Below, piece after piece: positions 8,375-57,527 of a stretch of 64,000 nucleotides of DNA. How positions within the stretch are numbered: position 1 is the first letter of the stretch; every line of letters starts with the position of its first letter. The notes below the pieces were generated by a model. It did no database searches and was not told the origin of the DNA. It was given only the letters and a program-made list of their open reading frames with translations. Both the position numbers and the translations under genes were made by a program. This DNA is from Botryllus schlosseri (taxonomy: Eukaryota): the NCBI GenBank assembly GCA_051294905.1, contig CM119371.1:13270001-13334000 (forward strand), in the 5' to 3' direction.

Positions 8375-8380
8375 TTTATT
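8375..8380 (-). terminator. Gene A polyadenylation signal AATAAA
   Basis: ~100 nt after the stop; same spacing in gene B. Confidence 0.65.
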
Positions 8381-8480
8381 TTCAGGCAAATGCGGCAGTT
8401 TCAGCAAATCCAAAAGGGGAATATGAATACTTCAGCCTTCCACCATTCATGCATCTTCTTTTCCATCTCTTTTCAGTATT

Positions 8481-8488
8481 TCAGTAAC
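8481..8488 (-). CDS. Gene A terminal coding micro-exon (R-Y-stop)
   Basis: tttattacag|GT TAC TGA; acceptor and TGA position are conserved in paralogue B (57520-57527). Confidence 0.7.
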
Positions 8489-11400
8489 CTGTAATAAAAT
8501 ATGATAGTTAGATGCTTTGCGTGAATCACTTAGTCCAAGTTCTTGATGCGTTATTTTCCGGACACGATAAGCTACACTTCTTATATTACTGCGCCATATG
8601 CATTAATCTATCAAAATGATATACCTTCAATTGTTGCACCTTACGGGAGATTACTGATTTAATGTACCGGCATATTTCAAGCATTTAATAAACCACTTAT
8701 AAGTGGTGTTACATTTGTTGCGATGCTACATCAAAGGCGTGCGGGCGTTGTTGTTACTTGAGTCTGGTACCATGGCACACAGCTTTCATCACCAGATGCT
8801 CTTGTGAATTTCTATCATAATGAGTGATACACATCTATGCAAATGCTACTTTCTACTTGGTATATTTCTAAATGTAAATAGCTTGATCTACGACAGTGGT
8901 TCCCAACCTTTTTCATCTCGTGCCTCCCTTGGCCGAAATTTTAGCCAAAATTCCCCCCTTAGGATAAATCTGCCCAATGATTAAAAATGGTCATTTTTAC
9001 CGCGCAAACACCTGTTGACTGAAAGAATAAAAGACGGGCGGTACCGAGTGTTTGTTTCTAGCAGTGCTGTAATAACACGTTGTAGACCGCCAAAAACCAT
9101 GTTCTTGGTCCCAATCACACAAATTCTGGAAGGCTTGACTCAACAGACCCACACGCTTCCATTTGTGTTTTCGGCTTACCATGCACCAATCGCTAATATA
9201 ACTGCTGTGAAAAATCAGTATCCATAAATTTACTGGTCTCGCGATTTTTTTCTCAAGTTTGCGTATGCATTTGGCCAACAATAGTGGTACTTTCATTTCA
9301 TATATAGCAGAGTTGACCAGATTCTAGTTTGACTCGAGTCACCATTTTCTGATAACTCGACTTGACTCGAGTCATTTTCTCAAAATACGGAAACGCGACT
9401 CGACTCGATACAATCTGGGTATTGACTCGACTTGGACTCGAGTCATTGTTCATGACTCGAACCAAGCCGTAGGATTCAAGACTATAAAACGGCCAAGACC
9501 GGCATTTCATTGTAATTTCCAAGAACAGTAAAGAACAACGCGACAAGAAACTGCTGAAAGTGAGGAAAATTAGTATGTCATAAATCCAAATCATTCAATA
9601 TCACCAAACAGTGTTGACCTGAGTGTGACTTGGACTCGTACTCGAGTCATAATACCATGACTCGGACTCGACTGTCTGCTCGGTGACTTGGACTCGGACT
9701 TGACTCAATGGTGAATTGAAAATGACTCGACTTGACTCGAGTCAAAACTATGAAAGTGATATATTGACTTGTGGCTCGGAGCCTCGTGACTCGGTTACAG
9801 CTCTGATATATAACATACACGTGATCATATTCCCTGCTGGAGCTCTTTGCAATTTAGAACACCCATTACGTTTCGGCAACATTGCACCAAGTTTACCATG
9901 TCTATTTTCGATCGGGTTCACTAAAAATAAAGCAAGGCTAGCGATCTCTTTGACTTGAATCGATGACGTTGGAATATTTAGTCACTGTCTGAAAATGTTG
10001 ACTTGAAAATATAAGATAAATACTTTCACAAGAGGCTTTGTTGTGACAGATTCGGCACGACATTTACTCGCTTAGGAAATATTTGATTGAGAGGCCGTCG
10101 CTGGCCTACAAAATTGTCTTGCGAACTGCAGCACATCTGAACGAGTTAAAAATGGGGTGGGGGGATTTGTATGTGAAAAAAAAATTTCAAATAGCATTTG
10201 AACATACTTTCAGCAAACAAAGAAACAGCCATAATAAGGAGCATACGTTGGAATATAACTGGTTGACTACATGACAGTTCGAACACGAACAATTTGGGAA
10301 ATCCGTTACAATTCTATAGTCGAATTCTAAAGTCGAATTCCTCCCTAAAAATTGAAAAATTCCCCCCAAGGGGGGAATTCCTCCCCGGTTGGGAACCACT
10401 GATCTAAGATAAACTACTAAAGTGGAAGAAGGAATACTCGCTAATGCAACCGTTAGGGTAGACACTACTGTAAGATTACAAAGACATTGCAATGAATCGC
10501 ATACAGCACTAGGTATCGTATTACGCTAAGGAAGATCAAGTCTCAAACGATGTGTCCATAACCTTGTCATACTCGCTAAAGGTAGGCTTTATCACGTTTG
10601 CATTTCCGCTACCAACTTAGTCATGTCATACTTACGGACACATTTAGGTAGTTCAGCCATCCATTTGCCGCTACGGCCGCAAGACACTTGCTGATATGCT
10701 TTGTTAAGTCTGTATCCGCGGCTGCAGTAAAACATGATCTTTTCCCCGTACGAGTAGGAGTATTTATTCAGGGGGTAGTAGTAGGCGTACGAATACGGAC
10801 GAGGAATCATGCAGTTTTCTGGAATTCCAAGTACACGGTATTAATATCAGAGCATTGGATTTCTGCCGCATAAAACAATGATTTGAAGTTAGTGGATATC
10901 TCGCCACTAGTAAACAAACGATAGAAAATTAACCCCACGATATTCCCAGGTTATGATTATGGAGATTACAAACCACTCCTATTTCACTACTTTCAACATT
11001 CCTTAGGACTAGAAAGCCCTACATTGAGTACGCGATGTTAGTGAAGTAAACACAGCTGATCTTGCAAGACATAAAAAATTTAGCATGAACATCGCGAGTA
11101 AAAATTATATTCTCATCATGGTTATGTGGAAAGCTGCCCGTCAATACATAATATCTGAACGTAAGCTGTTTGACTAGTTAAGGTTACAACAAAATTGATT
11201 TACTCCCAGATTCATCAATCTCCAGTACATATTGACCCTAATTACCAGTAGATTACTTTGAATAATTCGGACAACTGCCAATAGCGACTTGCTGTTTCAA
11301 TAATATGATTTGTTTTTAGTCGATCGTTGTTATGACCAGGGCTTTGGAGCCGGAGCCGGAGCCCGGAGCCGGAGCGCCGGAGCCAGGCATTTTCACCGGA

Positions 11401-14400: not shown

Positions 14401-17400
14401 CGGAGCCGGAGCCGGAGCAGTTTAAATTTCCGGCTGCTCCAAAGCCCTGGTTATGACTTGTCTCATTTCCCTATCCGGCTTTGATGGTAGTATCAAAATC
14501 ACTTACTGTTGCACATCGGGGCTTTGTTGTCCCAATTTCCGCCGTCCATACAGGTCATGTAAGAATAGCTGGATGCTCGGTACGACATTTGGTAAGTGGA
14601 CTTGCAGCGGTATTGCACTCGCTCGCCAATGCGATAGTACATTTTCATTGGATAATAGTAACCGTGCATTACATCGTCTCCCATGCAGTACTCTGTATAA
14701 GGAATCAACTATTGTGAAATGCGTAATGGAAATGCTTTAACAAGCCTAATCCGTTTTACTTCTCGTTAGCAATACAGCAGATCAGGTATATGATATTAAA
14801 ATGGAGGGATATATTACCAGTCCCCAATATGAGTGATCTTATAGGTTATTACTAGGGCGATTTTTTTTGACATGTCAAAATAAGTCAAGATTTTGTCAAA
14901 ATTGTAGCGTTAAGTCAAAAATTTGTCAAAATTGTTTACAAACACAAAATTTTTTTGCAAGCTGCATTTCGTTTGTATCATATATGTTTGCATTGTCAGT
15001 GAACTTTTCGTTTGACAGCTTTGAGCCTAGTTCTTAGGCCTGCTGTTGTAGACGGTTCATTGTCTGCTCATTGTGAATCATAAACAGTCAAATGAAACAA
15101 TAGGTTGACATGGTGTTATGCTCAACCTACCGCAGTATCCTAACTGAAGCAAGACTGCGTGAGCATTGGTTCTTATATCAAGAAGCGCATGATAAAAAAC
15201 TGTTATGTATACAACATTGTCGGAGTAAAGCAACACGGTTTGTCGCCAGCAGTGTACGTCAACTTCAGTGTTGCCAGCCAACAAGCTGCTGTTTTTTCTC
15301 CCATTCTTGGGGAGCTACACTTTCTACCCGAGAATGTAGGAAAGTATCTGAAAACTTTATTATTTCCACCATAATGTGGGATGTAACTACTGGAATTCTT
15401 CATAGGTTCAGATTTCGTTAAAATAAAGTTTTTTCATGTAAAAAGGTTGTCAGTTTTAAGGTCAAAAAAGTGTTTTCACGCCCGACTACTTTGTATTGAC
15501 AAACAGTTCAGACTAGAAATTGAGATAAGTACAATTGTGACATTGTGTGCGAAAACACCTAATTTGCGTACGTGAGGGCAAAATTTTGCCAAAATTAATT
15601 TTTCCGGTGTAAAAAACGTCAAAATTTTCGTTTTTTAGGTCAAAATCTTCTGTTATTCAGGTAAAAAAAAATCGCCCTACTTATAAATTATAACTGTCAC
15701 AAAATAAAATAGGCTATGCCTGGCGAATATGGAGGACGTTATTCACCAGGGCTGATGCAAATGTGCTGTTACTGTGCACCAAGAGGGAAGTTTAGAAACT
15801 TACTTTTGCATTTCTGAGGCGCGCCGCCCCAGTTTCCGTCCTTCATACACTTGGCGTGTTTACGGTAGTTGGCCGGGGCGTAATATCCGTAATCGCATTC
15901 AAACTTGATGTATTCCCCTTCCATGTATCGCATCTTGTAATATGCTCTGTGGTTGTAGGCATGGTGATCCGGCACTTTGCAATATTCTAAACAGATAAAA
16001 TTTCGATTAGTATTGCGATGTGTCTGGAGTCGATGCAGTTGGTTAATCCACCTCCAGCACTAGTGATGCTAAAACGCCTAGATGGATGTCAATTAAGTGA
16101 CGATTGATGAGACGCCCTTGGTCGTTCGCAGAGTCGCGATTTTTTGGTGGCTCGTCTTGACTCGAGTCATTTTTTCAAATGCGTAAAATGACTCGACTCG
16201 AGTAGATTTTTGTATTGACTCGACTTGTACTCGAGTCATTGTACATGACTCGAATTAAGTCATATGACTCGGGACTAGGACTGCCAAGACAGACAGTTTC
16301 AATCAATCAGTTTATCAATATTTTCATCATTTCATAACATCACAAGACTGCGATACAATGAAAAGATAAGAAGGTGTCGAAACAACTTGGAGTAGCCATT
16401 AAGATCAGACACCCACCTTAGCCTTTCATTGTAACTTCAAATGATAGTAAAGTTACCACAATATTGGTAGGCCTATATCGTCTATCAGTCCTGATACTGG
16501 GAAAATAGGGCCATAAATTGTTGAGACTGAGGAAAATTACTAAATTATGAATGCGGGCCATTCTATATCACTCGCACAGAGTTGAAAGAGTGGGTTGAAC
16601 TGGATTGACAGAAAACTGAATAGTGATGATAATGACTTGGACTCGGACTCGAGTCAAACACTATGACTCGGACTCGACCCTCTACTATTTGACTTGGACC
16701 CGGTGGTCAATTGAAAATGACTCGAGTCAAAACCATTAAAGTGAGATTGACTTGTGATTTGGTTACAATCCTTCGTTCGTCATCCTACGTTTATCGCAAT
16801 GTGTCGTCTGTATCTCATTATGTGTGTATTAAGGGGGTGGAAAGAGAACTTCTGGTTATGATTAACCGGATAACAGGCCTGGCTGGAGTGGATATATTTT
16901 ATTATTTAGACTTAAATTTCGACTCAGATGCTCTGTATATATGCAAATAGTTTACATGCTTCCAAAACTTAATTCATGGTCTTGCAACGATGGCTGGTCA
17001 AAGATGAAAAACACTGGGGTTGAATACGAATGAAACTGGGGATGCAAATATCATTTCCCGCTTAAATCCTGATTATTTAGCCCCGAAAGGTGTTTATTGT
17101 TGTAGGAAGAATATATGCCATGACTCTGCATCATGAATAAAATGAATATTACCGGTACCTGATTGTCCACTATCTACGAATTCTATCATAAGTAGATTAT
17201 GTTTTACTGGTAGATTAGTAATATCCTAATAGAAAGAGTTGTTTTTTCGTCAAAATGTGACCACAACCGCAGTCGATTACCTATACACCTGCGCCAAAGA
17301 TTTTGTACAAAAACATAGAAACTTTGTGCGATAATTGCTAATGAAAGAGGTGGATTCATTCAGCGTCCTATATCTTACTTGTAGGCATCCTCTTGCATTT

Positions 17401-20400
17401 CGGCAATTCATCCCAATTGCCGTCCAACATACAGGAAGAGTAATATTTCATCATCATTCCTTCGTCGTACTTGTAGTACCCAGCTTCGCACTTGACGTAG
17501 ATCTGATCGTCGGTGTCGTAATATTTCATTTTTGGTTCGTAGTAGCCATGTTCTACCATCGGCGGGGAACAGTATTCTGGAAAAGACGGTATTCTGAACT
17601 GATGAGGAATTTTGTAACTTGAGTTAGGACAAGCAACTTGAGTAGGCAAATCCGAATTAATCATTGGTTGAAACAGGCTTGTAACCAAGTCACAAGGCTC
17701 CGAGTCACAAGTCAGCCCCACTTTTATAGTTTTGACTCGAGTCAAGTCGAGTCATTTTCAATTCAACATCGAGTCAAGTCAGCAAGCAGAGCGTCGACTC
17801 GGAGTCATGGCCTTATTACTCGTGTTCGAGTTCGAGTCCGAGTTCAATTCCTTGTGTTGACTGCCCAGTTTCGAGTTAAAGTCTTGTTAAACCCACTTTT
17901 CATAACTGTGTTTAGTGATATGGAATGGTATAATAAACTAATTTTCCTCACTTTTAGCAGTTTCTGGTGGCTTTTTCAAGCACCACTACCAATATACGAA
18001 ATCCCAATACTGTGTGGTTACGGTACAATACTATTCTTCGAAATTACAATGAAATGCCGTCTGAGTCATATGACGAGTCCAAGTCGAGTCAATACACAGA
18101 TTGACTCGAGCCAGGTCGAGTCATTTCCGCATTTTGAGAAAATAACTCTAGTTAATTTGAGTCATTACGACCCTGGGTTGAAATGATTAGAATATGCATT
18201 GATGGGTAAATTTCCTCAGCAGCGAGGAAATTTATCATTGCCATTGAGCGCATACGCTTTCTAGCTGCAGCCACGAAATCTTATTCGCTGAAGGCGCCGT
18301 ATATCATAGTATTGGGTAACCAATTAGGATATTTTCTTGGACAGGACAAAGTGCTATTGGCAAGACTTTTGTGGTCGCGAGTAATGCCTGAATTTTACCT
18401 CATGAGTGTAATCTTCCAATTTATTATGCCATAATGAGAACTAATCAGCTGGTATGGCCAAACCGGCTAGATGAACGCCCAGCCAATCACTTGATCAGTC
18501 AATATTGGTGCTACGCATAATCAGATAAGATTTAATAATATGGAATTTATAAAACAAATTGATTTGATTTTGGAAGACCAACAACTTTGTGACTGCATTA
18601 TATCATGTTTTCGTTAAAAGTGGCGCACATTGATTTACATGCATCGTAACTAACAAGAAGTTATTATTCAAAAAATAATAGTCATTTGCTCTGGTACTTC
18701 TTGGCACAAGTTAGCCTACATAGTGGTACCAAGTAGGCTGCAGTGCTACTACAATAACAGGGTTACCATACGTCCTCTCTCAAGAGGACTTGTCCTCTTT
18801 TTTCACAAAACTGAAAGTGTCCTCGGAGGACGCCTAAATGCCCACTTGTTTGGGAATTTGTCCTCTTTCTTTAGAAGAAGTATTAAAATGGCATGAAAAA
18901 GTCGACACGTAGGCAGAATTTATAAGCAGAATTGTACAAAAGTGGGTAATGCGGGAGTCGATCAAAATGATGACCTGTTTTCTTAGTCATCGTGAAAAAG
19001 AAGGTTTATAGGGTGTCGAGACAAAGTGATGAGCTTTTTTTAGTCAACACAGAAGTTTTGGTAGAAAAAAGTATTCTTAGCGGGAACTGGAGCTTTCAGA
19101 CTTTTTGAAATGTCGCCTCTTTTTCAGATCTCAAAATCTGGTAACCCTGACAATTACAGCTATCAAACCATGGAGCATCTATACATGCTTTATGGAAAAG
19201 TGATCACATAATATATCTATGAATAACAAATAGGATTGCAATGTGTCTACACAATATTAGAATAGTTGTCAACTCGAATGCTTCAAGCTGTGTGGAAATT
19301 CAATACTCACTTTTACCGATCTTCATACACTTGGGTCGCTTCTTGTTCCATTTTCCATCTCTACCACAGTAGTTGTAGACGTACGCGTCATCATCTTCGT
19401 ATTTCAGTCGGTATCCGATGGCGCACCGGTAATATACTCTGTCGCCGGGCTTGTAGCTACCCTTCATCGGTGAATAGACGCCGTGCTGTATCATCATGTG
19501 CATACAAGAGCCTGTAAGCAATGTAATGTGTATGGTAATATCCACGCAGATCAATGGACTTATGTTTGGGATTATGGGATTAGGATCGTAAGTGCGTTCC
19601 ACAAATATGACCGTACTATTAAATTAACATATCTCAATAGATCTGTACAGGTAAATATGATGCAAATTTATCACAAAACGATTTTCCACTTCACAGATTC
19701 TAAAGCGTGCATAAATCACCGTGCCGGCATTAAAATCAGTGGTAAAATTAGAAGCAGCCTAATCACCAGGGTTGTAACCGAGCCATAAGGTTCCGAGTCA
19801 CAAGTCAATCTCACTTATAGTTTTGACACGGGTCACGTCGAGTCAGTGTCAATTCACCATTGAGTCAAGTCCTAGTAAGTGAATTGAGAGGTTCAACCCA
19901 CTTTTTCAGCTCTGCTCGAGTGATATAGAATGGCTCGCAATCATAATATAGTAATTTTCCTCAGTCTTGACAGCTTCTGGCCCTATTTTCCAAGTGCCAG
20001 GACTGATAGACCAAATACTAATAATGTGGTAATATTTCTATTCTTCGAAGTTACAATGAAATGTCTGCCGTGGCCGTGGTAGTTCGAGTCATGCGAGTAC
20101 AAGTCGAGTCAATAAACAAATATCCATTTGATCAAGTAGTGAACGTAGTCACCTACTTGACTACACTGAAGAAGAAGCATTGGCTGACTGGTCACCTCCG
20201 ATAGTTAAAGTGTCGTGGACTGTTTTAACAATATAATCGATTGTTACCTGCTTTTATCTTCTTGCACATTGGAGGCTTCATGTCCCACATGCCATCCTTT
20301 CCACAAGTAGCGTACCGATAGTATTTTCCTTCGTAGTACTTGTAATATCCATCGTTGCACTTGAAACGGAGTTGGTCACCAACAGAGTACATTTTCCTGT

Positions 20401-23400
20401 CGGGCTTCAATGTTCCATGTTCGAATTTGGGCATTTTGCAGTACTCTGTTATCATAACATAATAGTTTCGGCGTCAGCAGTTGAAACATCGAAGTATTCG
20501 TTAACTATCTGGCTCAAAAAGTAAGCAAACACATCTTCGTTGGTGGTTGATTTAATAACTTAGTATAACATTCAACGTTCAAGTGTGGTTTGGTCGCTAT
20601 CAAAGGTACCTAGTGCAGGTGATGGTAGGTGGTAATTCACTACGGTATGCAATTTCCGATTATTATTGTTGTCACATGACGGATAGAGTCGCAAATTGGT
20701 TATAACACTTACACGCAATTAGCGAACAGTGTGAATACTTTCGTTTAGCACCAATTCTATCTCGGGGATTGGAGTTCATTGCCTAATCCCACCAATTCAA
20801 GTTTCCATGACCAAGGACACGATTACATTATTACATTATTGCATAACCTAATAGATAAAACATTTCCCCAAATTCGGGGTATTTGAGAACTACCTGTCCC
20901 CGTTACTGAGCTTAATATATTTGAGGTGCGAAGGTGTAGTATTGTGGTCTGGATTTAGGTCTTGTGTCAACTAACATAGGACTTGGATTCGATTCAGAGA
21001 TGAAAAGAATAAGTGAATATGGACGTGAGGATAGTCACAACACATTCAGTCCGCAGCAACGTCACACCGTCTAACTAAAGCGATAAGTCACGTTGATTTG
21101 TATTCGGGAGGTCCATATTCCACGATCTATATGTGATTAGGACTCCATGCTCAACTGTAATTTGAAATTACCATTTCAATGGTTTCGAATTTCAGTGTTA
21201 CTTTGGATATATGGTTGAATAGCAAATGTGCGCGAATTTATCCTCATATTTCAATTTTGGGTGGTAATATTTTTACTCCTTATACACTCTGTTGGTATCC
21301 CCGTTAACTTACTTTTCTTCATATCCATGCACTTGGGTGATTTATACTTCCATTTGCCATCCATGCAAACGTTATATTCGTATTCCTCTCCCTTGTACAT
21401 TTTCTCAAAGCCTCTGGCACATCGGTAGTAAAGCTTCGAGCCTTGTTGATATCTCTCAAACATCGGCCAATATGACCCGTAATAGAATTCCGGCGCGTAG
21501 CAATAGTCTGTAAACAGTGGGAACAAAATATAAATCCTGATAATCTTAGTCTGCCTTAGACGTACTCATCATCATCATTCTCTTGCACATAGGTGGTTTC
21601 TTGTCCCAATAACCACCCGGTTTGCACATAGCGTAGTCATATCTTTCACCCTCGTAGTAGAGCTTGTAACCGTCTTTGCATTTGTAGCTGACCTTCTCAC
21701 CATACCCATATCTGGGTTTGGACCGCATGGCCATACCGTGTTCAATCATGGGAGGGTCACAGTAAGCTGAACAATAATACGTCATGAACGCAAGTCCTCA
21801 ATAGATTACAGCACAAAGTACGTATACGCATCAGTGACTTTCATGCTTGAATTAAGCTGGATGGTTTAGACATATTGCAAAGGCCTAAGCACACCAAGCC
21901 ATTCGTGACCACCTGCAAGTCGTAAATCTTGTCAAGTTATTGACATCTCACTTGCGTTTTAATACAACCCTCTTTTCATGAGCCATCAACTGTTTGTTTA
22001 CATTGTAAGGATTCATAAGAATACTAATACTGTAGACCAGTGGTCGTGAACCTTTTTGGGCCGAAGAGCCATATTGACCAAATATTTTCAAATTTAAATC
22101 CCAAAGAGCCATAAATGTCAATCAACTATTACGTCACAATTAAGATTTCGTGACGTAGGGTTTTGGCAGCACCAATGCCCGGAATTCGTAGTGTTCGCCA
22201 TATTTTCTCTGCTAGCATGCGTAGGCGGATCCAAACATGGTCACTACAGCAGTACATACATTGAAACCTTCAACGATTATTGGTATTTTCTATTCATGTT
22301 CATGAATGACTAGATTTTAAACATTTTTGCTCCAAAATTCAAGCAAATTTCAAATTTATTTTTCGAAAATAAAGCGCGAAAGGAGAGGTAATGCATAGAT
22401 GAGGCAAATACGGGCCAAGTCTCACCTGCAAAACGCAACTCATTGTAAATAGCCTAGAATTTATAATCACTGATATTAATGGAATGTAATTGTCGTACTG
22501 ATTCCGAATATCTAAATATTGATTGACTTCTCCATGATTCGGCTAACATAACGCTACATTTTAATGGCGGTATACTAGAAAACTTTTTACCGATCAAGAA
22601 CATGGATAGCTACAGCGATGTTTTTTATTTTTATTTCTAATTTTGGATGTCACCTCCAAGGCACTTCATTTCTCGGTGTAGATCAGTGGTTCCCAACCTT
22701 TTTCGACCCATCGCCCCCTTTTCAAGGTCAACACCGATCATCGCCCCCCAAATTTTGTGCACCGATAATTGGGCATACAGACTGTAATGACCGGCGGGTT
22801 GACTAAAAAAAAAAAAAAAAAGGTCATCTTTCTCCGCTCAGAGCTGAAAATAACGTTTTTTCGCTCCGCATTGCTAGGTGGATGACTAAAAAAAAGAAAA
22901 AAGGTCAGCCGTTTTTACGCGTCATCGCCCCCCTATCGCCCCCTTCGCTATTTTCGCCCCCCGTCGCCCCCTTTGTCCATTTTCGCCCCCCTGTCGCCCC
23001 CTTCGTCATTTTCGCCCCCCTAGATCGCCAAATCGCCCCCTGGGGGGCGATATCGCCCACGTTGGGAACCACTGGTGTAGATCAAGAAAATAATATGCAT
23101 TTGAAAACTGCATCATCACACAAGCGTCACTATGTCTGCTATTCTCTGTGATCAATCCAAAATTATTTCGAGACGCGCGATGTCGGGTAAATCGAATTCG
23201 CGAGCGATGTTAGTTGCCGCCGCGACAGTAACCTAAAAATTTGAGTATTTTGAAAAGGGGGATACGAGACCCTAACCCTGGATACCCCACTGTCTTGACC
23301 TCTCAAAGACATGTTTAGACTGTCACGAGAATAATTATTCTGGACGTAATGAAAATTTACTAACAAGTTGCTGCAATATCAATAAATTTATTACAAAATT

Positions 23401-32400: not shown

Positions 32401-35400
32401 ACATTAGGTTATTTTATAATTTATGATGATTAAGCTGTACAAAGCACTGTGCATGTCTATAGTGCTTGACTAAGTTAGACTGCAGAAGTACTCATTGACT
32501 CTCTCGTCACAGGTTTGAATTTGTGACGCCATTTTGTTTGTTAAATCAAACTACTGAAAATGCAAATAATTTCATCGCTAAGGCGTAATATATTTTCTGG
32601 CTATAGGCCTATGTATGATAACTATAATCTATATTTTTAAATCACTGCGGAATAGGGTTATTATAGAGCAGGGTTGTAATGATTTTTGATGACTTGACTT
32701 GTGTCATTTTTCCAAATCCATATAATGACTCGACTGGAGTCAATTTTTGTATTGACTGGACTTGTACTCACGTGATTTTGCATGACTTGAACCAAGTCAT
32801 ATGACTCGAGACTGTAGGACGGCCACGACTGACATTTCATTGTAACTTCGAAGAATAGTAAAGTTACCACGTTATTCGTATTTAGTCCATCAGTCCTGAT
32901 ACTTGGAAAATAGGCCAAGAAACTGTCAAGACTGACCAGTGAACAGAATGACTTGGACTCGACCCTCTACTAGCTGACTGGGACTCGGTGGTGAATTGAA
33001 AATGACTCAGGAGTCAAAACTATAAAAGTGAAATCGACTTGTGACTTGATACTTGGATGAAAGCCTGGCATAAAGTCCTATCAAATTGCTCAAATACGAA
33101 TGCAGCTGCATCAAAACTTGATTTTAGCAACGATATAAAAGCCTTACATCCGCTAGAGTGTTTCATGCTCTTGCACTTGGGAGGATCGAAGTCCCATTTA
33201 CCATCTTTGCCACACGTTCGATATTCATACCAGTCAGTTTCGAAAAACAGCCCGTATCCCTCTTTGCATCGGTGGTACATTCTATCTCCTTTCATATACA
33301 TTTTCATGTCAGGGAAATGATAGCCATGTTCGACCATGCTGGGCATGCAATACTCTGAAACATAGTGGGGATTTAACCTTGTTAGCATTGGAACATAGGG
33401 AATAGTTTCTTATGTCTTGGCAGATATTGCATTGTAGACTCACTCATATTCATAGGTCTGCATTTAGGTGCTTCGAAGTCCCAGTTTCCATCGTTCTTGC
33501 ACGTGGCGTATTCAAACCAGTCTTTGTCGAAGAACAGCGTGTGTCCGCCCTTGCATTTGAAAGATATGCGTTCTCCCTTTTGATACTTCTTTTTCATGGG
33601 CATGACCATTCCATCAAAGTCTGGTTTCTTGCACGTCACTGTTAGACATTGAAATTGAATGTGGTTATTTTTATTATTGGCAGGTATCATTGCGATTGCG
33701 AAAGAGTATATTTGAAAAACCAATATGTGTCGCGGTTTTAATCAAGCTGAACTGATGTAGCCTACCAATTTCACGAGTCAGGCATTGGTTACCCACAGAA
33801 TAATTTAACCTGTCAATGTATTTACAGTACTATCCTCGGAGTGTATCCTGGATCTAGAAGAACTCAAAAGCCCCTAAAATGATGCATTTCGAACATTATG
33901 ACGGCAAGAAGGTTGTTTGGGTCACGTCTGGTGTCTGGGAATTATTGCAGAATAGTGTCGTAATTATCAATCCTGGTGAGCTTATAGAAATTAAATGTTA
34001 GTGTGTTGTCCTAAAATGTTGCAATTCATTGAAAATATATCAAAACAAGGTATAGAAAGAAACACAGGAAGTACAGAACCTCATAATACGGTTGAATAAC
34101 ACTATGTCTATTCATATTTATCATTAACGCTTTTCTTCGAGCTGGGGCTCATCAGGTGTGATTTTAAATTATAACAAGGGCGTTCAAAAATTTTGTTTCA
34201 AAACAATCGATATCGCAAATTATGATGTCATGCACCGTAAAATTTAAAATTCGAAATATTTATGATGCAGACCCCAATAAAATAAACTTAATCAGTGTTG
34301 CCTATATGATTCACATTCCACATTTTGTTAGTTATTAAAATATAATTATAAATGTTAATAAAACATATATTGTAAATAATAGCTGCTATGAGATTGTTGT
34401 GGTCCAGCTAAAAATATCCATCTCCACAAAATTTAAACTAACGCTAAACAATTGCCCACATTGCAGCAGGGAATGTCTGACTCGAAATTTGTAAATGATT
34501 GTCCAGTATTCACACAAAACAAAGGTACAAGAACGTGTAGCCTACTTCGCTTTAACTACGAAAGTTGGTAATTAGCCTACCCGTAAATCAGTTGTAGACT
34601 ATATACATCCAATATAGTAGGCCTACATCTTCCAAGCAGAAATGTGGCGTACCTTGTTTCATTATACACCTTGGTGGCATAAAGTCCCACATCCCGTTGT
34701 CCATGCAGGTCGCATATTCATACCATGGCCCGTCGTAAAACAACATATATCCTTCTTTGCATTTGTAGGACACCTTGTCTCCGTTATAGTAATGTTTCTT
34801 GTAAGGTTCTGGCATCCCGTGATCGATCATTGGTTTTTCACAATACTCTGAAGGAATTGTGATACTGTTTAATATCTCATACCGATGCAATTTTGTGTCT
34901 TTCCGCTTTACTCGTGTTAGAGCAGGGGTTCTCAACCTGGGGGGCGCGCCCCCCTTGGGGGGCGCGGGACGCTCTCAGGGGGGGCGCGAGAAATTGACGA
35001 AGTCAGTATAGGGGGGGGGCGCGAGAAATTGACAAAGTCAGTATAAATTGTACGTGTCTGAACATGTGTTCCACATCCATTATGAGAAGACGATTAATGA
35101 AGATGAAATTTATTCCATATTCAAGAAAGCTTGCAAAATACAAACTCTAGCAACAGCGCTCAACGGAGTATAGTCTGATTTCAACTTCATTTGAGCAAAT
35201 TTTTAAAATTCTTTGGAGATATAGAGAGCAATTCCCACGTGTAAGTCATTCATTGCTTCATAGCTTTGACAGTAGCCTAAAGCTTGTCGCGCTGGGCAGC
35301 TCTTGTTAGTAGCTTGCGAACTGCACTGCCTAAGACAGACTTAGATGCAACATAGGTTGCCCGGTTTCGCCCTCAATTAGGCTATAAATCAACACAATTA

Positions 35401-38400
35401 ATTCATTTCGAAAACTGATCAAATTTAGCCTGGCAGGACAGAACGACGCCTTGCTCTCTGTACTCACTACCAGCATCAGGATTAGTCTTAGGGTGACCTA
35501 CATTGACATTAATTAATGGATGTCTTGTTCAATGTTTTTTTGTTATTTTCAAACAAGTTTGAAGAAATTTGTCAGCAATGTAAAAGACTCAACAACTGGA
35601 ATGCAGATTCAAAATTGGCGTAAGATATACCTTATGTATACTATTAGATCAGGGGTGGGCAGCCTGCAGCCGTAGAAGGAAATTTGAGCGGCCGTCGACG
35701 TCTAATTCAATTAGTATGTGTTGGCGGCCGTAGACATGCAAATTGCAATTACGAATTCACTCCCGCATTTTCGAGAGATTTTAATGAATCTTGAAATTTT
35801 CTTAGCCCTCCGCGCAATTCAACAAGACTTCATTTTTCGATTTTAATGCAGTAGCGCCCTTCTTAATCTGAGCCGGAATGGGAATTGGCAAGAAATAGCA
35901 ATTCGTTCGCGGCATTGAAAAATTTTCGCGCTTCGCGCGACAATATGCACCTCTCGGCTACTATTCATAACTTTGCCACTCGCGATTTCGGTGCGTACAA
36001 TAGGCCATTGTGAAAAGTAGAATAATCCGGAGTTCACCGGGAATGGATATGGACAGTTTACCGTAGGAATTTTGCGTCCAGATCGTTCATTGCGGCTATG
36101 CCCTGGAATGCGGCCTTACGCTACATAAGCAATCGAAATGCGGTCATGATTATCAAAAACGTTGCCCACCTCTGTATTAGATGATGTGCTCTTTTTGACA
36201 TGACGATAAATGCAAGGGGGGTCAGGGGGGCGCGAGTTTTTTGACCATCTCCAAAGGGGGCGCGTGTCAAAAAAGGTTGAGAACCACTGTGTTAGAGAAT
36301 CTCAGACACTAAAAAATTTCCACTCACTCATGCACTTGTACGGAGATTTGTCCCATTTTCCATCTTCCTTACACATGGCCTTTTCATAGTCGTACTTGGC
36401 GTGTTTGCGATATCCGTCCATGCACATGAACTTGATGTATTCACCTTTTTTGTACATTTTCTTGGCGTACGCCATGTGATTGTAATCCATGTGTTTCGGA
36501 GCCATACATTTCTCTGTAATGGAAGTAATCACGCTATATATCCTATGATTGCAGACAGTAACAATCAAAGCCAGAACCAGAATATGTTTGTACCAGATGT
36601 TCTCTAATATCAATTCATTATCAAGTTACAAATCTCTCCACAATATCCAATTTGTGTGAGCCCAGCTATTTGGGTTCTCAAATACAATGCACTGTTTCTT
36701 AGTTTTATGGTTGAAGGAAGAGCTTCTTGGAGGTAAAGAACTTCATGTTCAATTGAATAGTATATTCATATTGAAATGACCCGCATATTTTCGGTTGGCA
36801 CTCACCAGGGGTAATCGTCAGCAACCAGTGAAGAATTAGAAAGACCATCGTATTTCAATCAACAATCGTAGCACAGAATATGATGCCCCGTTGATGATAT
36901 ACAATGTTCTTCCCAACTCTCTAATCTCTACTAGCTGCTGACGATTACCGCTGACGAGTGTCAGCCGAAAATACTCGGGTTCATTTCAGTATGAATATAC
37001 TATTCAGTTCTATAGTCACACCATCAATACAAAACGATAGACATAAAAGAATACGCACACCCACACTGTAGCTTACAGATATTGTCCGTTTAAACTCACT
37101 TTCACTTTCACATTTATACGGCATGTTATCCCAATTGCCGTCCTTCATACAAGTTGCCCACACGTAGCCATATCGTTCTGGCTTCTTGTAGCCGTCCTTA
37201 CAGTAGTAATAGATCTTGTCACCGTGCATGTACATTTTCTTAGCGTAAGACTTGTGATAATACATCATGTGATCCGGAGCACTGCAGTGTTCTAAAACGA
37301 TTACGTTGAAAATGTGTATTATTCAGTTGTCTTGGCTTCACGATTAGCAATTCCTCACTTTTATCCAAAATGATTTTCGAACATTGCAACAGCCACTAGA
37401 GTCAACATAAAAAATGTAGGGAGTAGGCATTGTATGGGATTTTGCTACTAGGTTTGCTGTCACAAGCCATGAGCTATTTATTGAACCCAACGGCGGTATT
37501 CAATCTGTTGGGTTGCCGCCCCCTGTCATACGAATATAGTAAATATGGTCGTGTTCTATTTCATCATTAGTCATTACATTTTATTAAACAAACACGGACA
37601 AGCAATTTGTCTCTTTCAGTGCACCCAATAACCTGGGATGTCTGGCAGTAGCCATAATCGCCTAATTCTGCAACATAAAACTTTTTGTGTACAACCTACG
37701 AAAGCTTTATTGCACGTCAATCTGCTCATGCTTAACATGTTTGTGACCTAATATTGGCTATGCCCAATACATTATCAGTTTTTGTGAAAAACACACCAAA
37801 AATCATTGGACTGCTAATCTTAATTATGATGTGCCTGCATCCTGCTCGCATATTGTACATAGCATACAGTGTACATAGCCGAATGGAAGTTAAGATGAGA
37901 AATTTTGGAACATTTCAAGGTCGTCAGAAGAGACATTCCGAGCATAGATTTTGAACAACATACTACAGGATTTCCTGGACTTTAAAACCCTTGCTCAAAT
38001 GTCTCAACTTACGAACGGGTAAGGGTAACATGAGACACATTGTGTTCATGATGAGTGACCAAGCCATTCTTGTTCATTACAACGAAAATTCATCACAAAT
38101 GCGGAGTCAACTGAGTCAAATAATTAATCATGAAATGATTCACTTTTAAAATGATTTTGCACAACATATATGGTTGTAAATGCCATTGAAAGCCAATTGC
38201 AAATGTGTCTGTTCCCCACCAGAAACGCTTGAACTTCCCACAATCGGAAAATTCCCTATTGGTTGGGAACCACTGTGCTGGTAGTTTTCGCTGAACAAAA
38301 TCCTATATGCATAGGCTGCCAAGTTGGGCGCCACTTCATCGTGTTTTTGGAATGATTCTAGGCATGAACTGTAAACATGAATCAATGATCAGTTGCTCAC

Positions 38401-41400
38401 CCGTCACTGGGGATATTGAGTGAACTTTGTCATAAATAATATGTCGGTACTGACAGAAAGAGGGTCGACCATAGCGATGTACATTGCTAAGCGCAATGCC
38501 ACTGATTCTAAGTAAAAGGACAATGCTTACTTTTGCACATGGGAGCTTTCCTATCCCACATTCCATTGTCTCCGCACATCATGTGGTCATATTTTTCTCC
38601 TTCGTAGTATTTATAGTACTTATCGGGACACATAAAGGTGATTTTCTCGCCGTAATAGTATTGTTCCTTCATCGGTTCGTATTTGCCGTAATCCATTTTC
38701 ATCATCTTGCAGTAATCTGATAAATTATCATAAATGATACTAGAGTACAACGAAACCACGTGCGAACGTATTCAGTGACTGGTGCGAACTCCTTACCGTA
38801 GCATTTCGACGCCTGCTTCCACTTTCCGTCCATTTGACATGTAGAATAAATGTGCTTTCCTCTATTTCCGGGACAGCCATAGTAGACTTTGTCATCATAT
38901 TTGTATCCGGCCTTGTCCGGGTAGAATTTACCGCCAAAGAACGTCCGCGGGTGCGCGCACGGCTCTTAAATACGTACATAAGTATTACGGCTTTGGCCAG
39001 TTGTCTCCAGTATTGAGATTTTTGCGGCAGTAAAGGGATGAAGTCGTCTTTGAGTCTTAAGTAATTTCCAGTCTTGTCTATAATCTTCAAATGCATATAT
39101 ATATAGGCTAAATGAAGGGTGGACAAACTACTGTTCGGGTGCCACATGCAGCCCGTTAAATGTTCAACTGGACCACCGGAATTCTAAACTTAAATGAATA
39201 AATCGTTACTGAATCAATGGAAATCTCACAACATATTGTCTTTCTATACTTCCAATCGCCCGGACAACATTATGTAGCCTACGATGAGATTGCTCGATAA
39301 GAATCCATTGCAACAGCAGCTGCGACCGAGCAATTGTATTCGGTTATTAATTTTCTTGAGGTTTTGTAGCAATCAGAATATTACACGCCCATACAAGGTT
39401 TAAATAGAATATATAATTCAACTTCACGAGGAGTGAGCTCACACAGCACAATAACTACTTGAGCATTGATCATGATCACGGTAGCGCAGATTGAGATCAA
39501 CGCCACTGCCACATCGTTTTAGAAAACAAAGTGAGTCAGCTTGACAATGCGATGATATCCCATAAAATACCAAAATAAAAGTACTTCCAAATAAAATGCT
39601 ACTAGATTTTTCAGAAAAAAAAACGCTCATTCAATCCCTGTGATTTTCAATCTTCTATAAGACTCATCTCAAAGTCAGATATTATGTTGTAATTAGTCTC
39701 CATAGCGAAATCTGCATATTTTCAACTCCAAGAGGTGAGATTACAAAGCACACATCCAAGTGGTCTCGCCACAAATCAAATGTTATTCACACCCTCTCCC
39801 TACTGAAATCTCGGTATGTTTTTCCTGATAAAACAGGTGAGCAGCGGTGATTATCCAACTTAAAGCAATATTAAAAAAATAAAACATAGTGTGAGCACAG
39901 AACAAAGATTCCATACAGGTTTACACCCAACCCATTGTGACCCACGAATCAAAGTCGGCCTGCCGAGCATACCTGGGCTAGCTCACGCCGACCTAATCTA
40001 GCTTGATACGCTGCTATTTCTACTGCTAGAACGATATACACTTTCAACGTACTTAGTTGTAGTAATAACTGTTAAGCTAATGCCAGTGCCTGCCTGGCTG
40101 GCACCTGACACTGGCAGTATATAGAATGTAGTCAGACGGTAGCTTATGACGTTGGCTACTATAAGCGCTGTGGTGACGCGATGCTTGTGGTCGGAACAAC
40201 AACCTACGAAGATATGCGGATATTACATTTCAAGTTTTTTTGCCAACTGAATGCAAAGATTTTTTGCCGGCACTGTAAATAACAGTTTATCTGATAACTT
40301 TGATATTGCCTTTGGCTACCGCCAAGAACAACATGTCATGCTAGACTGGTCATTGGTTACTGGGCCGGAAACTTAAAAACATTTTGAGGTCATAGGTGAA
40401 TATCAAACAATCAGTTTTATTTATATTTTCATCGTTTCAAAACACCATAGAACCGCGATACAATGAAAAGATAGGAACGTGCCGAAACAACTTGCAGTAG
40501 TCTTTAAGATCAGACACCGACCTTGGCCAAGGGGAGGTAAAGAAGAGGCATGCACACCGACTGAATGATAACATACAAAAGCTAAAATGTATTTTTAGTG
40601 CGAACTAGTACTGGTCAACATATCTTGTTTGTCTCAGACCAGTACAAATTTCTGTTCTTTTCCTCCATTTATCCTAACACGTGCTCTTTCATTTACCCTG
40701 TCAGTCTTACAATTCACTGTTGCAGTACGATGTATGCAATTTATAGCCAATATACTTCGATCCGCTGCAGTAGACTCGATGATCAACAGATCACTTCGCT
40801 GCAGCTTCATCTTGCAATCATAAAACATATTGGCCAATTCTATGAACTGTATATCGTATTCGTACACATCTCATTTGCTTTGAAATTGACACTGTCACCA
40901 TTTTTTTGTATGTGTCCGTGATACTGAAGTCTATGCTATTTACTTTATTTTATTTTTACTGTTTTGTTATCTTGCGATGAGAGAGAGAGAGAGAGAGTCT
41001 TTATTTTCATCGAACCAAAATACATAACAAACGGCAGTGATGGTGGTACAGAAAATATGCGTGCACAGTATTCGGTATTAGATAGGAATGATCGATAAGA
41101 CCGTGAAGGTCATCTAGTCTGATCACACCAGCATCAAACAGGTACACTTGACTCAGAACAGTCTGGCTGTAAAAAATTGTTTAGTTAGGAAAGGAAAATA
41201 GAAAAAAATTAAACAATGGTAGCAAATGATCAATGAAGCAATGTCTGGGCGAGGTAGGGCAACAGTTAGTGTAACGACAAGAGGTGATCAAGTAGGGCTT
41301 TTTTGAATCTATTATAAGGCAATTCACGGATTGATGAATAAAATATTCTCTCTCTCTCTCTCTCTCATAAGACGCAAGCGACAAAATAAGGTGGCATGTA

Positions 41401-47400: not shown

Positions 47401-47540
47401 CACTTCTTTCAATATTAAGAGGTTTAGCACATAATTGTGGAGTCGGTTCGACTTTACAATGAAGAGAACGTGGTAGGCTACTTACCGAGAGATACCTGGA
47501 TGATCAGTGCCACTGTGATGGAACTGAGTAAATTGTTCAT
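8481..47540 (-). CDS. Gene A (whole model): secreted multi-CCP/sushi protein, signal peptide + 19 CCP modules, ~1237 aa, Tyr/Lys/Met-rich, factor H-like architecture
   Basis: Manual splicing of 21 exons with ag/gt boundaries gives one open frame (55+3651+8=3714 nt including TGA). Each internal exon encodes one CCP with four Cys and the conserved Trp. No stop arises at any junction codon. Extra exons in the 7-kb intron 38965-45971 cannot be excluded. Confidence 0.85.
8894..10401. mobile_element. hAT-type non-autonomous element in the last intron of gene A, containing a GACTCGAGTC-family element (~9310-9803)
   Basis: TIR cagtggttcccaacc/ggttgggaaccactg, TSD atctacga/atctaaga; absent from the homologous intron of gene B. 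Confidence 0.8.
10636..10818 (-). CDS. Gene A CCP19 (NCMIPRPYSY...WMAELPKCV)
   Basis: 183 nt, ag / gtaagt. Confidence 0.9.
11337..14449. mobile_element. Nested MITE stack: outer GGAGCC-repeat element > 11580-13452 > 12037-13293 > 12334-13100; plus 13642-14284
   Basis: TSDs gttatgac, gcatagag, gcctagtt, c(c/t)ttagtc, (g/a)tatagac; empty site in gene B near 59080-59100. Confidence 0.85.
11745..11924 (+). pseudogene. hAT (Buster/Charlie-type) transposase C-terminal fragment
   Basis: LIFPYTWECEQGFSSLMTIKSKKRNR...HDFRCAASKRIPRIDKLMDNKQMLPSH* resembles the C-terminus of Buster/ZBED5/SCAND3-type transposases; lies inside the TIR element 11580-13452. Confidence 0.8.
14507..14692 (-). CDS. Gene A CCP18 (YCMGDDVMHG...WDNKAPMCN)
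   Basis: 186 nt, ag / gtaagt. Confidence 0.9.
14853..15679. mobile_element. MITE (tagggcg...gtcaaaa-rich TIRs); second copy at ~25345-28328 split by nested insertions
   Basis: TIR tagggcgatttt/aaaatcgcccta; shared internal sequence. Confidence 0.75.
15804..15986 (-). CDS. Gene A CCP17 (YCKVPDHHAYNH...WGGAPQKCK)
   Basis: 183 nt, ag / gtaagt. Confidence 0.9.
16130..16772. mobile_element. GACTCGAGTC-rich MITE family (other copies ~9310-9803, 17675-18180, 19765-20110, 31885-32380, 32668-33050; related 29535-31121)
   Basis: Arrays of palindromic gactcgagtc and shared internal sequence; this copy also contains a retroelement 3' fragment (~16300-16422) seen again at ~40430-40528, ~42020-42140 and ~45800-45890. 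Confidence 0.8.
17379..17576 (-). CDS. Gene A CCP16 (YCSPPMVEHG...WDELPKCKRMPT)
   Basis: 198 nt, ag / gtaaga. Confidence 0.9.
19311..19511 (-). CDS. Gene A CCP15 (SCMHMMIQHG...WNKKRPKCMKIGK)
   Basis: 201 nt, ag / gtgagt (an alternative in-phase gtaaaa donor lies 6 nt upstream). Confidence 0.9.
20248..20445 (-). CDS. Gene A CCP14 (YCKMPKFEHG...WDMKPPMCKKIKA)
   Basis: 198 nt, ag / gtaaca. Confidence 0.9.
21313..21507 (-). CDS. Gene A CCP13 (YCYAPEFYYG...WKYKSPKCMDMKK)
   Basis: 195 nt, ag / gtaagt. Confidence 0.9.
21566..21766 (-). CDS. Gene A CCP12 (YCDPPMIEHG...WDKKPPMCKRMMMM)
   Basis: 201 nt, ag / gtacgt; followed by a 58-nt intron. Confidence 0.9.
22038..23477. mobile_element. hAT-type MITE with nested MITE 22684-23074 (tcgcccc repeats)
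   Basis: TSD ctgtagac (outer) and gtgtagat (inner); cagtgg...ccactg termini. Confidence 0.85.
24806..25006 (-). CDS. Gene A CCP11 (YCDPPKFEHG...WKFVHPTCKMATK)
   Basis: 201 nt, ag / gtatgg. Confidence 0.9.
25345..28328. mobile_element. Five-level nested stack: tagggc-family > 25570-27716 > 25938-27402 > 26084-27248 > ~26255-27060
   Basis: TSD ttgtaaat around caggggt...acccctg; TSD ctgttgat around cataggcgccgaac...gttcggcgcctatg. Confidence 0.75.
28372..28569 (-). CDS. Gene A CCP10 (YCYPPKIMHG...WDKKPPMCKSHKM)
   Basis: 198 nt, ag / gtaagc. Confidence 0.9.
28928..31501 (+). mobile_element. Deleted DNA transposon (probably Chapaev3/CMC-like) with transposase remnant at ~29187-29290, hosting two nested elements
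   Basis: Termini cattggccaaca / tgttgaccagtg; remnant FYRTREKELPAYFSQQD*LFYCKDIEELLLKM; superfamily assignment is from memory. Confidence 0.55.
30445..31111. mobile_element. Near-perfect 667-bp foldback (palindromic) element
   Basis: tagggctcttcaaaaatgac... mirrored as ...gtcatttttgaagagcccta; 8-bp TSD cccaacac; inserted in the terminus of element 29535-31121 (TSD atgcacac). Confidence 0.9.
31596..31790 (-). CDS. Gene A CCP9 (GCMGHDVMHG...WNHSPPMCKSMYK)
   Basis: 195 nt, ag / gtaaga. Confidence 0.9.
33148..33354 (-). CDS. Gene A CCP8 (YCMPSMVEHG...WDFDPPKCKSMKHSSG)
   Basis: 207 nt, ag / gtaagg. Confidence 0.9.
33444..33638 (-). CDS. Gene A CCP7 (TCKKPDFDG...WDFEAPKCRPMNM)
   Basis: 195 nt, ag / gtgagt. 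Confidence 0.9.
34653..34847 (-). CDS. Gene A CCP6 (YCEKPMIDHG...WDFMPPRCIMKQ)
   Basis: 195 nt, ag / gtacgc. Confidence 0.9.
34923..36289. mobile_element. hAT-type MITE with nested MITE 35650-36174
   Basis: TSD tgttagag (outer) and tattagat (inner); the inner element is related to 12334-13100. Confidence 0.85.
36328..36513 (-). CDS. Gene A CCP5 (KCMAPKHMDYNHM...WDKSPYKCM)
   Basis: 186 nt, ag / gtgagt. Confidence 0.9.
   Translation of the reverse strand, partial: RNVWLRNTWITITWRTPRKCTKKVNTSSSCAWTDIANTPSTTMKRPCVRKMENGTNLRTSA
37100..37291 (-). CDS. Gene A CCP4 (HCSAPDHMMYYHK...WDNMPYKCESE)
   Basis: 192 nt, ag / gtgagt. Confidence 0.9.
38531..38716 (-). CDS. Gene A CCP3 (DYCKMMKMDYGKY...WDRKAPMCK)
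   Basis: 186 nt, phase 1-1, CCP motif. Confidence 0.9.
38797..38964 (-). CDS. Gene A CCP2 (PCAHPRTFFGGKFYPDKAGYKYDDKVYYGCPGNRGKHIYSTCQMDGKWKQASKCY)
   Basis: 168 nt, taag| and |gtaagg; not shown in this frame in the ORF track, translated by hand. Confidence 0.8.
44789..45018 (-). pseudogene. Possible decayed CCP pseudo-exon in gene A intron 2
   Basis: ttttcag|cc GAC TGT start; fragments YGVAMYEMKM, GETAM, SYVMCRSNG and LKCD fall in shifting frames with stops. Confidence 0.3.
45972..46154 (-). CDS. Gene A CCP1 (GCDEPNVKYATM...CWDGYEMKGNEKLNCDRSNNWDADMPMCI)
   Basis: 183 nt, ttcaag| and |gtaagt, canonical CCP spacing. Confidence 0.85.
47486..47540 (-). CDS. Gene A exon 1: signal peptide MNNLLSSITVALIIQVSL(G)
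   Basis: ATG, 18 mostly hydrophobic codons, then a phase-1 G|gtaagt donor; in-frame TAA upstream; joins in frame to CCP1 (G-C-D-E-P). Confidence 0.75.
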
Positions 47541-57519: not shown

Positions 57520-57527
57520 TCAAAGGC
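57520..57527 (-). CDS. Gene B terminal coding micro-exon (R-L-stop)
   Basis: tttattacag|GC CTT TGA, homologous to 8481-8488. Confidence 0.7.

Follow-up and report, generated by a model that had tools for sequence, protein, structure and literature searches.

A Tyr-, Lys- and Met-rich array of 19 sushi domains in Botryllus schlosseri: a member of a conserved ascidian family resembling factor H in layout, and a candidate extracellular matrix protein

The locus considered here is a 64,000-nucleotide stretch of the Botryllus schlosseri genome (GenBank assembly GCA_051294905.1, contig CM119371.1, positions 13,270,001 to 13,334,000), hereafter the window. On its minus strand lies a gene for a predicted secreted protein built of 19 sushi, or complement control protein (CCP), domains and extremely rich in Tyr, Lys, and Met. 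The question raised by this gene is whether its product should be regarded as a complement regulator of the factor H type, as the layout suggests, or whether its composition points to another function. The observation was extended to a conserved ascidian family, for which the comparisons given below indicate an origin separate from factor H, and an interpretation as a matrix protein appears plausible.

A six-frame scan of the window revealed 19 minus-strand segments with the sushi pattern, from 46152 to 10640, and seven more from 63903 to 58145. The gene model containing the former runs from an ATG at 47540 to a TGA ending at 8481 and comprises 21 exons (3714 nt, one stop, 1237 amino acids (aa)), namely a 55-nt signal exon, 19 one-domain exons, and an 8-nt terminal exon; all 20 introns are in phase 1 with GT-AG boundaries. 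The product consists of a predicted signal peptide, called by eye and from hydropathy, 19 sushi domains, and a two-codon tail. An earlier sequence-only reading of the locus, which proposed a signal exon, 19 sushi exons, and a micro terminal exon spliced into a protein of about 1237 aa with no transmembrane segment, was exact in this respect. The features are listed below in window coordinates.

47486..47540, minus strand: exon 1, with the start codon and an 18-aa predicted signal peptide plus a phase-1 donor; same exon in both paralogues, 84-85% nucleotide identity
45972..46154, minus strand: CCP1 exon; AAG acceptor, CAG there in both paralogues; Pfam match
38797..38964, minus strand: CCP2 exon; AAG acceptor, CAG in the paralogues; Pfam match
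38531..38716, minus strand: CCP3 exon, 48% Tyr+Lys+Met; Pfam match, paralogue splice sites
37100..37291, minus strand: CCP4 exon; Pfam match, paralogue splice sites
36328..36513, minus strand: CCP5 exon, 48% Tyr+Lys+Met, not intact in the third paralogue; Pfam match, paralogue splice sites
34653..34847, minus strand: CCP6 exon; Pfam match, paralogue splice sites
33444..33638, minus strand: CCP7 exon; Pfam match, paralogue splice sites
33148..33354, minus strand: CCP8 exon, longest linker; donor conserved in the paralogues; Pfam match
31596..31790, minus strand: CCP9 exon; Pfam match, paralogue splice sites
28372..28569, minus strand: CCP10 exon; Pfam match, predicted sushi fold
24806..25006, minus strand: CCP11 exon; Pfam match, paralogue splice sites
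21566..21766, minus strand: CCP12 exon, ending in MMMM; donor 3 nt earlier in the paralogues; Pfam match
21313..21507, minus strand: CCP13 exon; Pfam match, paralogue splice sites
20248..20445, minus strand: CCP14 exon; Pfam match, paralogue splice sites
19311..19511, minus strand: CCP15 exon; Pfam match, paralogue splice sites
17379..17576, minus strand: CCP16 exon; Pfam match, paralogue splice sites
15804..15986, minus strand: CCP17 exon; Pfam match, paralogue splice sites
14507..14692, minus strand: CCP18 exon; Pfam match; its 3' end is the loose-end consensus of RNA reads at 10818
10636..10818, minus strand: CCP19 exon; Pfam match; RNA cover in runs X6, X21, and X23
8481..8488, minus strand: terminal coding micro-exon, two codons and TGA; junction in RNA of three of four runs; homologous 8-nt coding end in both paralogues
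8375..8480, minus strand: 3' untranslated region (UTR) ending near AATAAA at 8380-8375; RNA cover drops in the 8292-8383 bin; AATAAA similarly spaced in both paralogues
57520..64000, minus strand: 3' portion of the tandem second paralogue, with CCP13-19 and the terminal exon, preceded by the end of the CCP12 exon; it continues to G000:C1:13343811, with the signal exon beyond; 86% aa identity to the first copy

All 19 modules matched Pfam Sushi PF00084 (19/19 at E<=1), a check that had been proposed with the gene model, and CCP10 reached 47.9 bits against a cut-off of 20.7. The residues C, C, C, W, C are invariant in 19/19 modules, as is a Tyr. CCP10, the one domain of the 19 that was modelled, was predicted to be all beta with the sushi fold at a predicted local distance difference test (pLDDT) score of 95.8; the top Foldseek rows were CCP modules of factor H, MAP-1, CD46, C2, and factor B (best E 1.3e-3, TM 0.55-0.82). 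The mature chain has a mass of 147 kDa, an isoelectric point (pI) of 9.0, a net charge of about +59, and 76 Cys, with 38 disulfides predicted. No membrane segment was detected after the signal region, where the highest 19-residue hydropathy was 0.32, and none of the seven candidate intronic exons had an in-frame sushi, hydrophobic, or Tyr/Lys/Met-rich character. An additional membrane or protease exon, which would have contradicted the initial model, was ruled out at the 3' end by RNA and had no candidate in the introns. Since RNA reads cross from CCP19 to the terminal exon, the protein ends two residues past the CCP19 exon, without an anchor, and is predicted to be secreted.

Four RNA runs (X1, X6, X21, and X23) were mapped to positions 8200-10950 of the window. 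The junction of CCP19 with the terminal exon (10636/8488) was read in three of them: in two contigs of X6, in 37 reads with 32 starts of X23, and in 13 reads of X21, besides 8 reads from an allele with a 1-nt UTR difference. The exon reads of X21 were all in a single orientation, which fits a minus-strand transcript. For the CCP18-CCP19 junction, a loose end at 10818 was present in two of the four runs, X6 and X23 (46 reads). Thus, the RNA mapping suggested at the outset bore out the last junction and the one before it, and the remaining 18 are supported by splice positions and phases conserved in two paralogues. In X1, intronic repeats were covered and exons were not; such a gap proves nothing and is at most a hint of sample-dependent expression. 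The run search returned no matching run recorded as RNA; match shares of 0.22-0.24 in small RNA-like runs were disregarded, given that X1, once mapped, had cover in intronic repeats and in no exon. A repeat of about 500 bp rich in GACTCGA units, probably a small mobile element, occurs in introns at 9328-9805, 16131-16757, 17664-18164, 19767-20073, and 31898-33044 and in the first intron of paralogue 2, and is heavily present in the RNA runs. Reads of a second allele or a close copy are also present in X6 and X21; it has several CCP19 substitutions (10734-10772) and a 1-nt deletion in the 3' UTR (8441-8470), and its splicing is the same.

The mature chain contains 13.9% Tyr (170 residues), 13.7% Lys, 9.4% Met, 8.4% Gly, 6.2% Cys, 1.4% Leu, 1.6% Ile, and 2.1% Val; Met and Cys together reach 15.6%, and Tyr, Lys, Met, Cys, His, and Trp about 48%. 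The sum of Tyr, Lys, and Met (Y+K+M) is 37.0% for the whole mature chain and 23-48% per exon over the 19 exons. CCP3 (11 Tyr, 10 Lys, and 9 Met in 62 aa, 48.4%) and CCP13 (12 Tyr, 9 Lys, and 5 Met in 65 aa, 40.0%) are at the high end; the hand counts made for these two domains in the sequence-only reading proved exact, and the runs MMMM, YYY, and KYYKYY are all present. The control set consisted of the best 150 matches to a profile of the window domains among 1.84 billion representatives and is biased toward similar composition. Domain Y+K+M was 35.1% in the window protein versus a control mean of 9.4% (SD 3.2) and a maximum of 20.5%, the latter in a member of the same family (P0077, see below), and none of 2352 control domains reached 30%; the claim of a composition outside the sushi range was thereby upheld. 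AT mutational bias, already considered an improbable cause, was rejected by a GC content at third codon positions (GC3) of 59% in a window of 41% GC and by the excess of TAC over TAT (109:61; AAG:AAA 79:88). At synonymous third positions (GC3s), the gene has 0.56 and two other sushi genes of the genome have 0.44 and 0.52; translational selection is not claimed.

Relatives were found in Styela clava. A word-indexed search returned the P0001 cluster (XP_039261760/762/765, 'complement factor H-like'), predicted proteins of 1315 aa with 20 sushi domains, whose 11 members come from apparently three genes with gene models >90% identical, and P0162 (XP_077969783, 'complement receptor type 2-like'); a profile search returned P0077 (XP_039261768, 'C4b-binding protein alpha chain-like'). 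The automatic factor H-like annotation anticipated for such genes is what the P0001 relatives carry. Identity to the window protein is 51% for P0001 (1166 aligned residues), 45% for P0162, and 37% for P0077, compared with 26-29% for four vertebrate factor H proteins, and domain Y+K+M is 35.1% in P0001 and 29.1% in P0162. P0001 shares the signal peptide, an array of sushi domains only, a broadly colinear domain order, and the bias (Tyr 18%, Lys 13%, Met 6.5%, pI 8.9), but it has more Tyr and less Met and lacks the last domain type. That type is common to the window protein, P0162, and P0077, since CCP19 pairs with the last domains of the latter two in a domain tree. P0162 and P0077 belong to the same domain subfamily and are Tyr/Lys-rich with no evident membrane segment; P0162 differs in a long His/Asp repeat insert and an acidic pI of 6.4, and P0077 in having 10 domains, 5% His, and almost no Met (0.5%). 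The insert of P0162 (about residues 1085-1290) lies within the Cys2-Cys3 loop of one sushi domain, a loop lengthened family-wide, and is a candidate metal-binding segment; His/Asp repeats are a feature of metal-bound tanned materials.

The range of the family was judged from searches covering few stolidobranch proteomes, and P0001 and P0162 are absent from the 150 control matches. Among these matches, proteins of Ciona savignyi and Clavelina were not Y/K/M-rich. The shorter relatives of P0001 were 8 fish proteins at 23-26% identity only, and the ESM Atlas matches were generic sushi clusters. Ciona KY.Chr14.487, paired with the S. clava gene in the accessible Table S3 of PMC9953650, was rejected as a homologue, being a generic best match common to 10 S. 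clava sushi genes; the accessible part of that file contains no row of expression values for the gene. The S. clava gene identifier had no match in the accessible part of the endostyle atlas supplement PMC10980280, where identifiers may differ. No paper on the window protein or the six S. clava accessions was found in a full-text search, which leaves most subscription papers uncovered. Botryllus cDNAs with short consensus repeats are listed as a putative regulator in the available text of PMC5465252, citing Pancer et al. 1995. These cDNAs may describe the same gene. The clones reportedly encode a somatomedin-B-like domain, which the window protein does not have.

The layout of factor H, a signal peptide followed by about 20 tandem CCPs and no other domain, is present in the window protein. 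Vertebrate factor H and the soluble regulators of complement activation (C4BP, factor XIII B, and beta-2-glycoprotein I) are likewise secreted and sushi-only, with about 20 modules, short linkers, and the same fold. Vertebrate factor H differs, however, in its generic identity of 26-29% without positional orthology, in its composition (Tyr 5-6%, Met 1-2%, pI 6-6.7), and in a shorter Cys2-Cys3 loop. The best scores of window domains to factor H domains were 17-37 bits and out of order, versus 36-82 bits to P0001. In a quick domain tree (103 rows, 60 columns, weak deep nodes) built from pattern-picked domains only (18 of P0162, 16-17 per factor H; P0131/P0137 left out), each of factor H domains 1-5 pairs with its positional counterpart in other vertebrates and never with a window domain, and the window domains interleave with those of the S. 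clava family, often in matching order. By bit scores and tree, the window family is a separate sushi expansion, factor H-like in layout only. The earlier view that this is not an ordinary factor H was thus supported, and its description of a complement-type scaffold holds for the architecture; the implied descent was overstated because sushi modules are generic and nothing shows a complement-acting ancestor.

A joint alignment with factor H located the excess residues. In core columns, the numbers of Tyr per domain are similar (2.4 in the window protein and 2.2 in factor H), whereas non-core columns contain 5.8 vs 1.1 Tyr, 4.9 vs 0.5 Met, and 7.2 vs 3.0 Lys. The excess falls in the linkers, in columns where factor H is polar or variable, and in an insertion of roughly four residues that carries Tyr and follows Cys2 within the Cys2-Cys3 loop, whose median spacing is 17 compared with 13 in factor H; this placement suggests exposure at the surface. 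Leu, Ile, Val, and Thr amount to 7.0% versus 20-22% in three factor H proteins. Of 12 motifs tested against 500 shuffles, only MxM (18 vs 10.5) and GYY reached a z of about 2.5. Compared with P0001, non-core Tyr is conserved by site (74/102, against 392/854 for all non-core sites), including 13/13 linker Tyr. Overall conservation is 82% for Tyr, 48% for Lys, and 34% for Met, with frequent exchange of Met and Lys. Fifteen of the 27 Phe of the window protein are Tyr in P0001, which points to the hydroxyl. From these patterns, Tyr looks selected by site and Met and Lys as bulk content.

The window gene is one of three neighbouring paralogues, a point that the sequence-only reading overlooked. A search of the 496-Mb genome (window at G000:C1:13270001-13334000) showed that it is followed by a tandem copy with 19 domains and an inverted copy with 18 domains, in which CCP5 is not intact; a near-identical version of the third copy is on contig C17, and partial copies are on C23. 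Every splice position and phase is kept in two paralogues, and similarity between introns appears to be due to shared repeats. The paralogues are 86-93% identical with domains free of stops and a nonsynonymous to synonymous rate ratio (dN/dS) of 0.11-0.14, by which they are under purifying selection. This ratio and the occurrence of the Y/K/M bias in S. clava support a bias that is selected and old.

Other family fragments and sushi genes were also noted. The stretch separating paralogues 1 and 2 contains an interstitial array of 22 degenerate telomere-type repeats (GGTTAG) at 52101-52228, which adjoins a 200-bp tandem duplication (51619-51992). Single family exons occur at G000:C17:478018-478191 (+), 592727-592900 (-), and 730988-731161 (-) (L020, L023, and L025); two of them are CCP17-type copies identical to each other, the other is a diverged CCP19-type copy, and family exons are lacking nearby in the 30-70 kb examined; the 30-kb stretch of one of them contains a 1214-aa retrotransposon-like frame, and the exons were possibly moved by mobile elements. 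At G000:C23:60110-71391 (L010-L011), a gene resembling copy 2 has its final three exons twice, as an exact inverted pair flanking a partial CCP16; this is either a palindromic duplication or an assembly artefact. The compact gene at G000:C4:23690770-23694285 (L013) has sushi exons, at least 12 in number, that lean toward His, Tyr, Trp, and Lys, and it looks like S. clava P0128 by eye; C4:23725984-23743818 is another array with at least 27 ordinary sushi exons. An intronless frame of 3085 codons at G000:C15:7386001-7406000 (L032-L033) has a hydrophobic segment near its start and then at least 12 divergent sushi domains, and is possibly a type II membrane protein or a retrocopy. The C15 frame and the C4/C8 sushi genes were not accepted as family members, the other fetched sushi genes of the genome having 2-24% Y+K+M per domain.

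The reading that we favour, tentatively and as falling just short of probable, is that the window protein may be an oxidatively cross-linkable protein of an extracellular matrix such as the tunic and not a complement regulator. In the soluble precursor, 19 sushi modules of the disulfide type would carry their load of Tyr, Lys, and Met at variable positions and in linkers, and the strongly basic chain would attach to a matrix of polyanions or cellulose. Exposed Tyr would then be oxidised by a phenol oxidase or haloperoxidase to 3,4-dihydroxyphenylalanine (DOPA)-quinone, di-Tyr, or halo-Tyr; the oxidised groups would be captured by the Lys, His, and Met residues of adjacent chains, which would fix the material. 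These four residues are the ones that react in quinone tanning and in haloperoxidase chemistry. A basic, aromatic, multi-copy array that is predicted to be secreted would fit a substrate of the morula-cell tyrosinase system. According to the available text of PMC9395347, a protein with a tyrosinase domain is released into the tunic by morula cells of stolidobranchs and was proposed to sclerotise it, and a title cited there concerns Met-catechol adducts in model sclerotisation. Hardening of the ascidian tunic by phenol oxidases is proposed in the accessible parts of both PMC9395347 and PMC3039461. Like DOPA-containing and tanned marine proteins (mussel foot proteins, ferreascidin, tunichromes, and Tuphoxin substrates), the window protein is Tyr- and Lys-rich, basic, and, by prediction, secreted; it has no sequence relation to them, and in place of their short or disordered low-complexity repeats it has a 147-kDa array of folded modules with 76 Cys. 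High Met is not typical of these proteins.

Several points weigh against the matrix reading. Known DOPA adhesives are mostly disordered low-complexity chains, whereas the window protein is folded and multidomain. Surface position was deduced wholly from alignment columns, and a column changed from Gly to Tyr (53-75% Tyr) accompanies a change from Ile to Ala/Ser at a core position, so part of the extra Tyr may be structural, repacking the longer hairpin. KY/YK pairs are not enriched (41 vs 46 expected), and conservation of non-core Tyr is average when compared with P0162 (46/111 vs 354/900). Met is weakly conserved by site (28/91) and almost absent from P0077, and is thus not needed by the family. 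Bulk expression in X23 was moderate, at about 33 reads per kilobase per million (a rough value), with none in X1, and the tunic itself is a presumed location. A more speculative and rather doubtful proposal is that styelid ascidians have made the sushi module, with about six extra Tyr and additional Lys and Met, into a curing substrate of folded beads on a string, and that a single oxidation by an oxidase or haloperoxidase would join such beads into a network by way of DOPA-quinone, di-Tyr, and possibly Met-Lys bonds.

Other explanations share part of this evidence. The protein might remain soluble, whether in blood, tunic fluid, or mucus, and act there as a sacrificial sink for oxidants, halogens, or metals, a possibility considered unlikely. 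It would take up H2O2, hypohalous acids, or quinones (as Met sulfoxide, halo-Tyr, and Lys haloamine) or bind Cu, Fe, or Zn, and would thereby shield the tissue from the cytotoxic chemistry of the animal itself. The six side chains that make up about 48% of the chain are those most reactive to hypohalous acids, and Met is kept as a matter of overall content, which stays at 6-9% while 21 Met>Lys swaps are seen versus P0001; the MxM enrichment and the His/Asp insert of P0162 also agree with a sink. A pure sink would, however, have no need of site-conserved Tyr, the MxM enrichment was not repeated in P0001 (6 vs 5.6), MxxM, MM, and HxxH are not enriched in the window protein, and P0077 is nearly devoid of Met. 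A store of Tyr and sulfur amino acids, either yolk-like or for budding, takeover, or tyrosine-derived metabolites, and released by proteolysis at Lys-rich linkers, is improbable. Arylphorins and Met-rich hexamerins are similarly Tyr- or Met-rich secreted stores of insects, an analogy of composition only, since their fold is that of haemocyanin; no haemocyanin family was found in the Pfam scan of the window modules, where Sushi was the only family matched by all 19. KK or KR pairs in many linkers, the three gene copies, the expression varying among runs, and the tyrosine-derived botryllamides made by botryllids (available text of PMC3039461) would suit a store, but Leu, Ile, Val, and Thr, also dietary needs of animals, are scarce, 38 disulfides would make it a costly one, and the dN/dS values and site-conserved Tyr seem to exceed the needs of a mere store. 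The sequence-only reading had put forward matrix or adhesive, oxidant or metal sink, and storage roles in no order of preference; because of the low Leu, Ile, Val, and Thr and the Tyr conserved by site, the data favour a matrix protein or a sink over general storage.

A polyanion-binding immune or complement-regulating plasma protein, comparable to factor H or beta-2-glycoprotein I, is likewise judged quite unlikely. Its Lys/Tyr/His patches would bind sulfated glycans or microbial surfaces and might modulate ascidian C3, in agreement with the factor H layout, the net charge, the Lys-rich linkers, and, as noted in the accessible part of PMC5465252, the presence of C3 and factor B in ascidians and of the Botryllus sushi cDNA listed as a putative regulator. 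This explanation leaves the Met excess unaccounted for. Domain-by-domain homology to factor H is absent, the pI of the three factor H proteins ranges from acidic to near neutral, and a basic, aromatic coat repeated on every one of the 19 modules suggests that the role is a bulk one and not that of a specific C3b interface. Finally, it is very improbable that the endostyle secretes the protein as an iodotyrosine or thyroid-hormone precursor or as a store of iodine, with thyroid peroxidase as the iodinating enzyme. According to the available text of PMC11730217, thyroxine can form on any scaffold with close, exposed, flexible Tyr pairs, with Asp/Glu-Tyr as an acceptor motif, and many of the 170 Tyr are adjacent. 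The 17 Asp/Glu-Tyr sites, compared with 20 expected from composition, do not appear enriched, no Tg1 domains were found in the Pfam scan of the window protein, and the S. clava endostyle precursor described in PMC12992692 is a different, Tg1-domain protein; the accessible portions of that paper and its six supplements do not mention sushi, complement, or factor H.

The family shows how far the sushi fold tolerates resurfacing, with 37% of the chain in three residues and aliphatic residues down to a third, and implies that 'complement factor H-like' labels in ascidian annotation may not mean complement regulation. If the protein is an ordinary plasma or storage protein, its significance is modest. 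The tunic substrates of phenol oxidases are poorly defined in the accessible literature, and the window family provides a concrete modular candidate, whose single domains of 60 aa are expressible and assayable. If it does act as a curing substrate, tunic hardening would gain its missing protein partner, and disordered adhesives of the mussel type would have an alternative that is structured and accessible by recombinant means.

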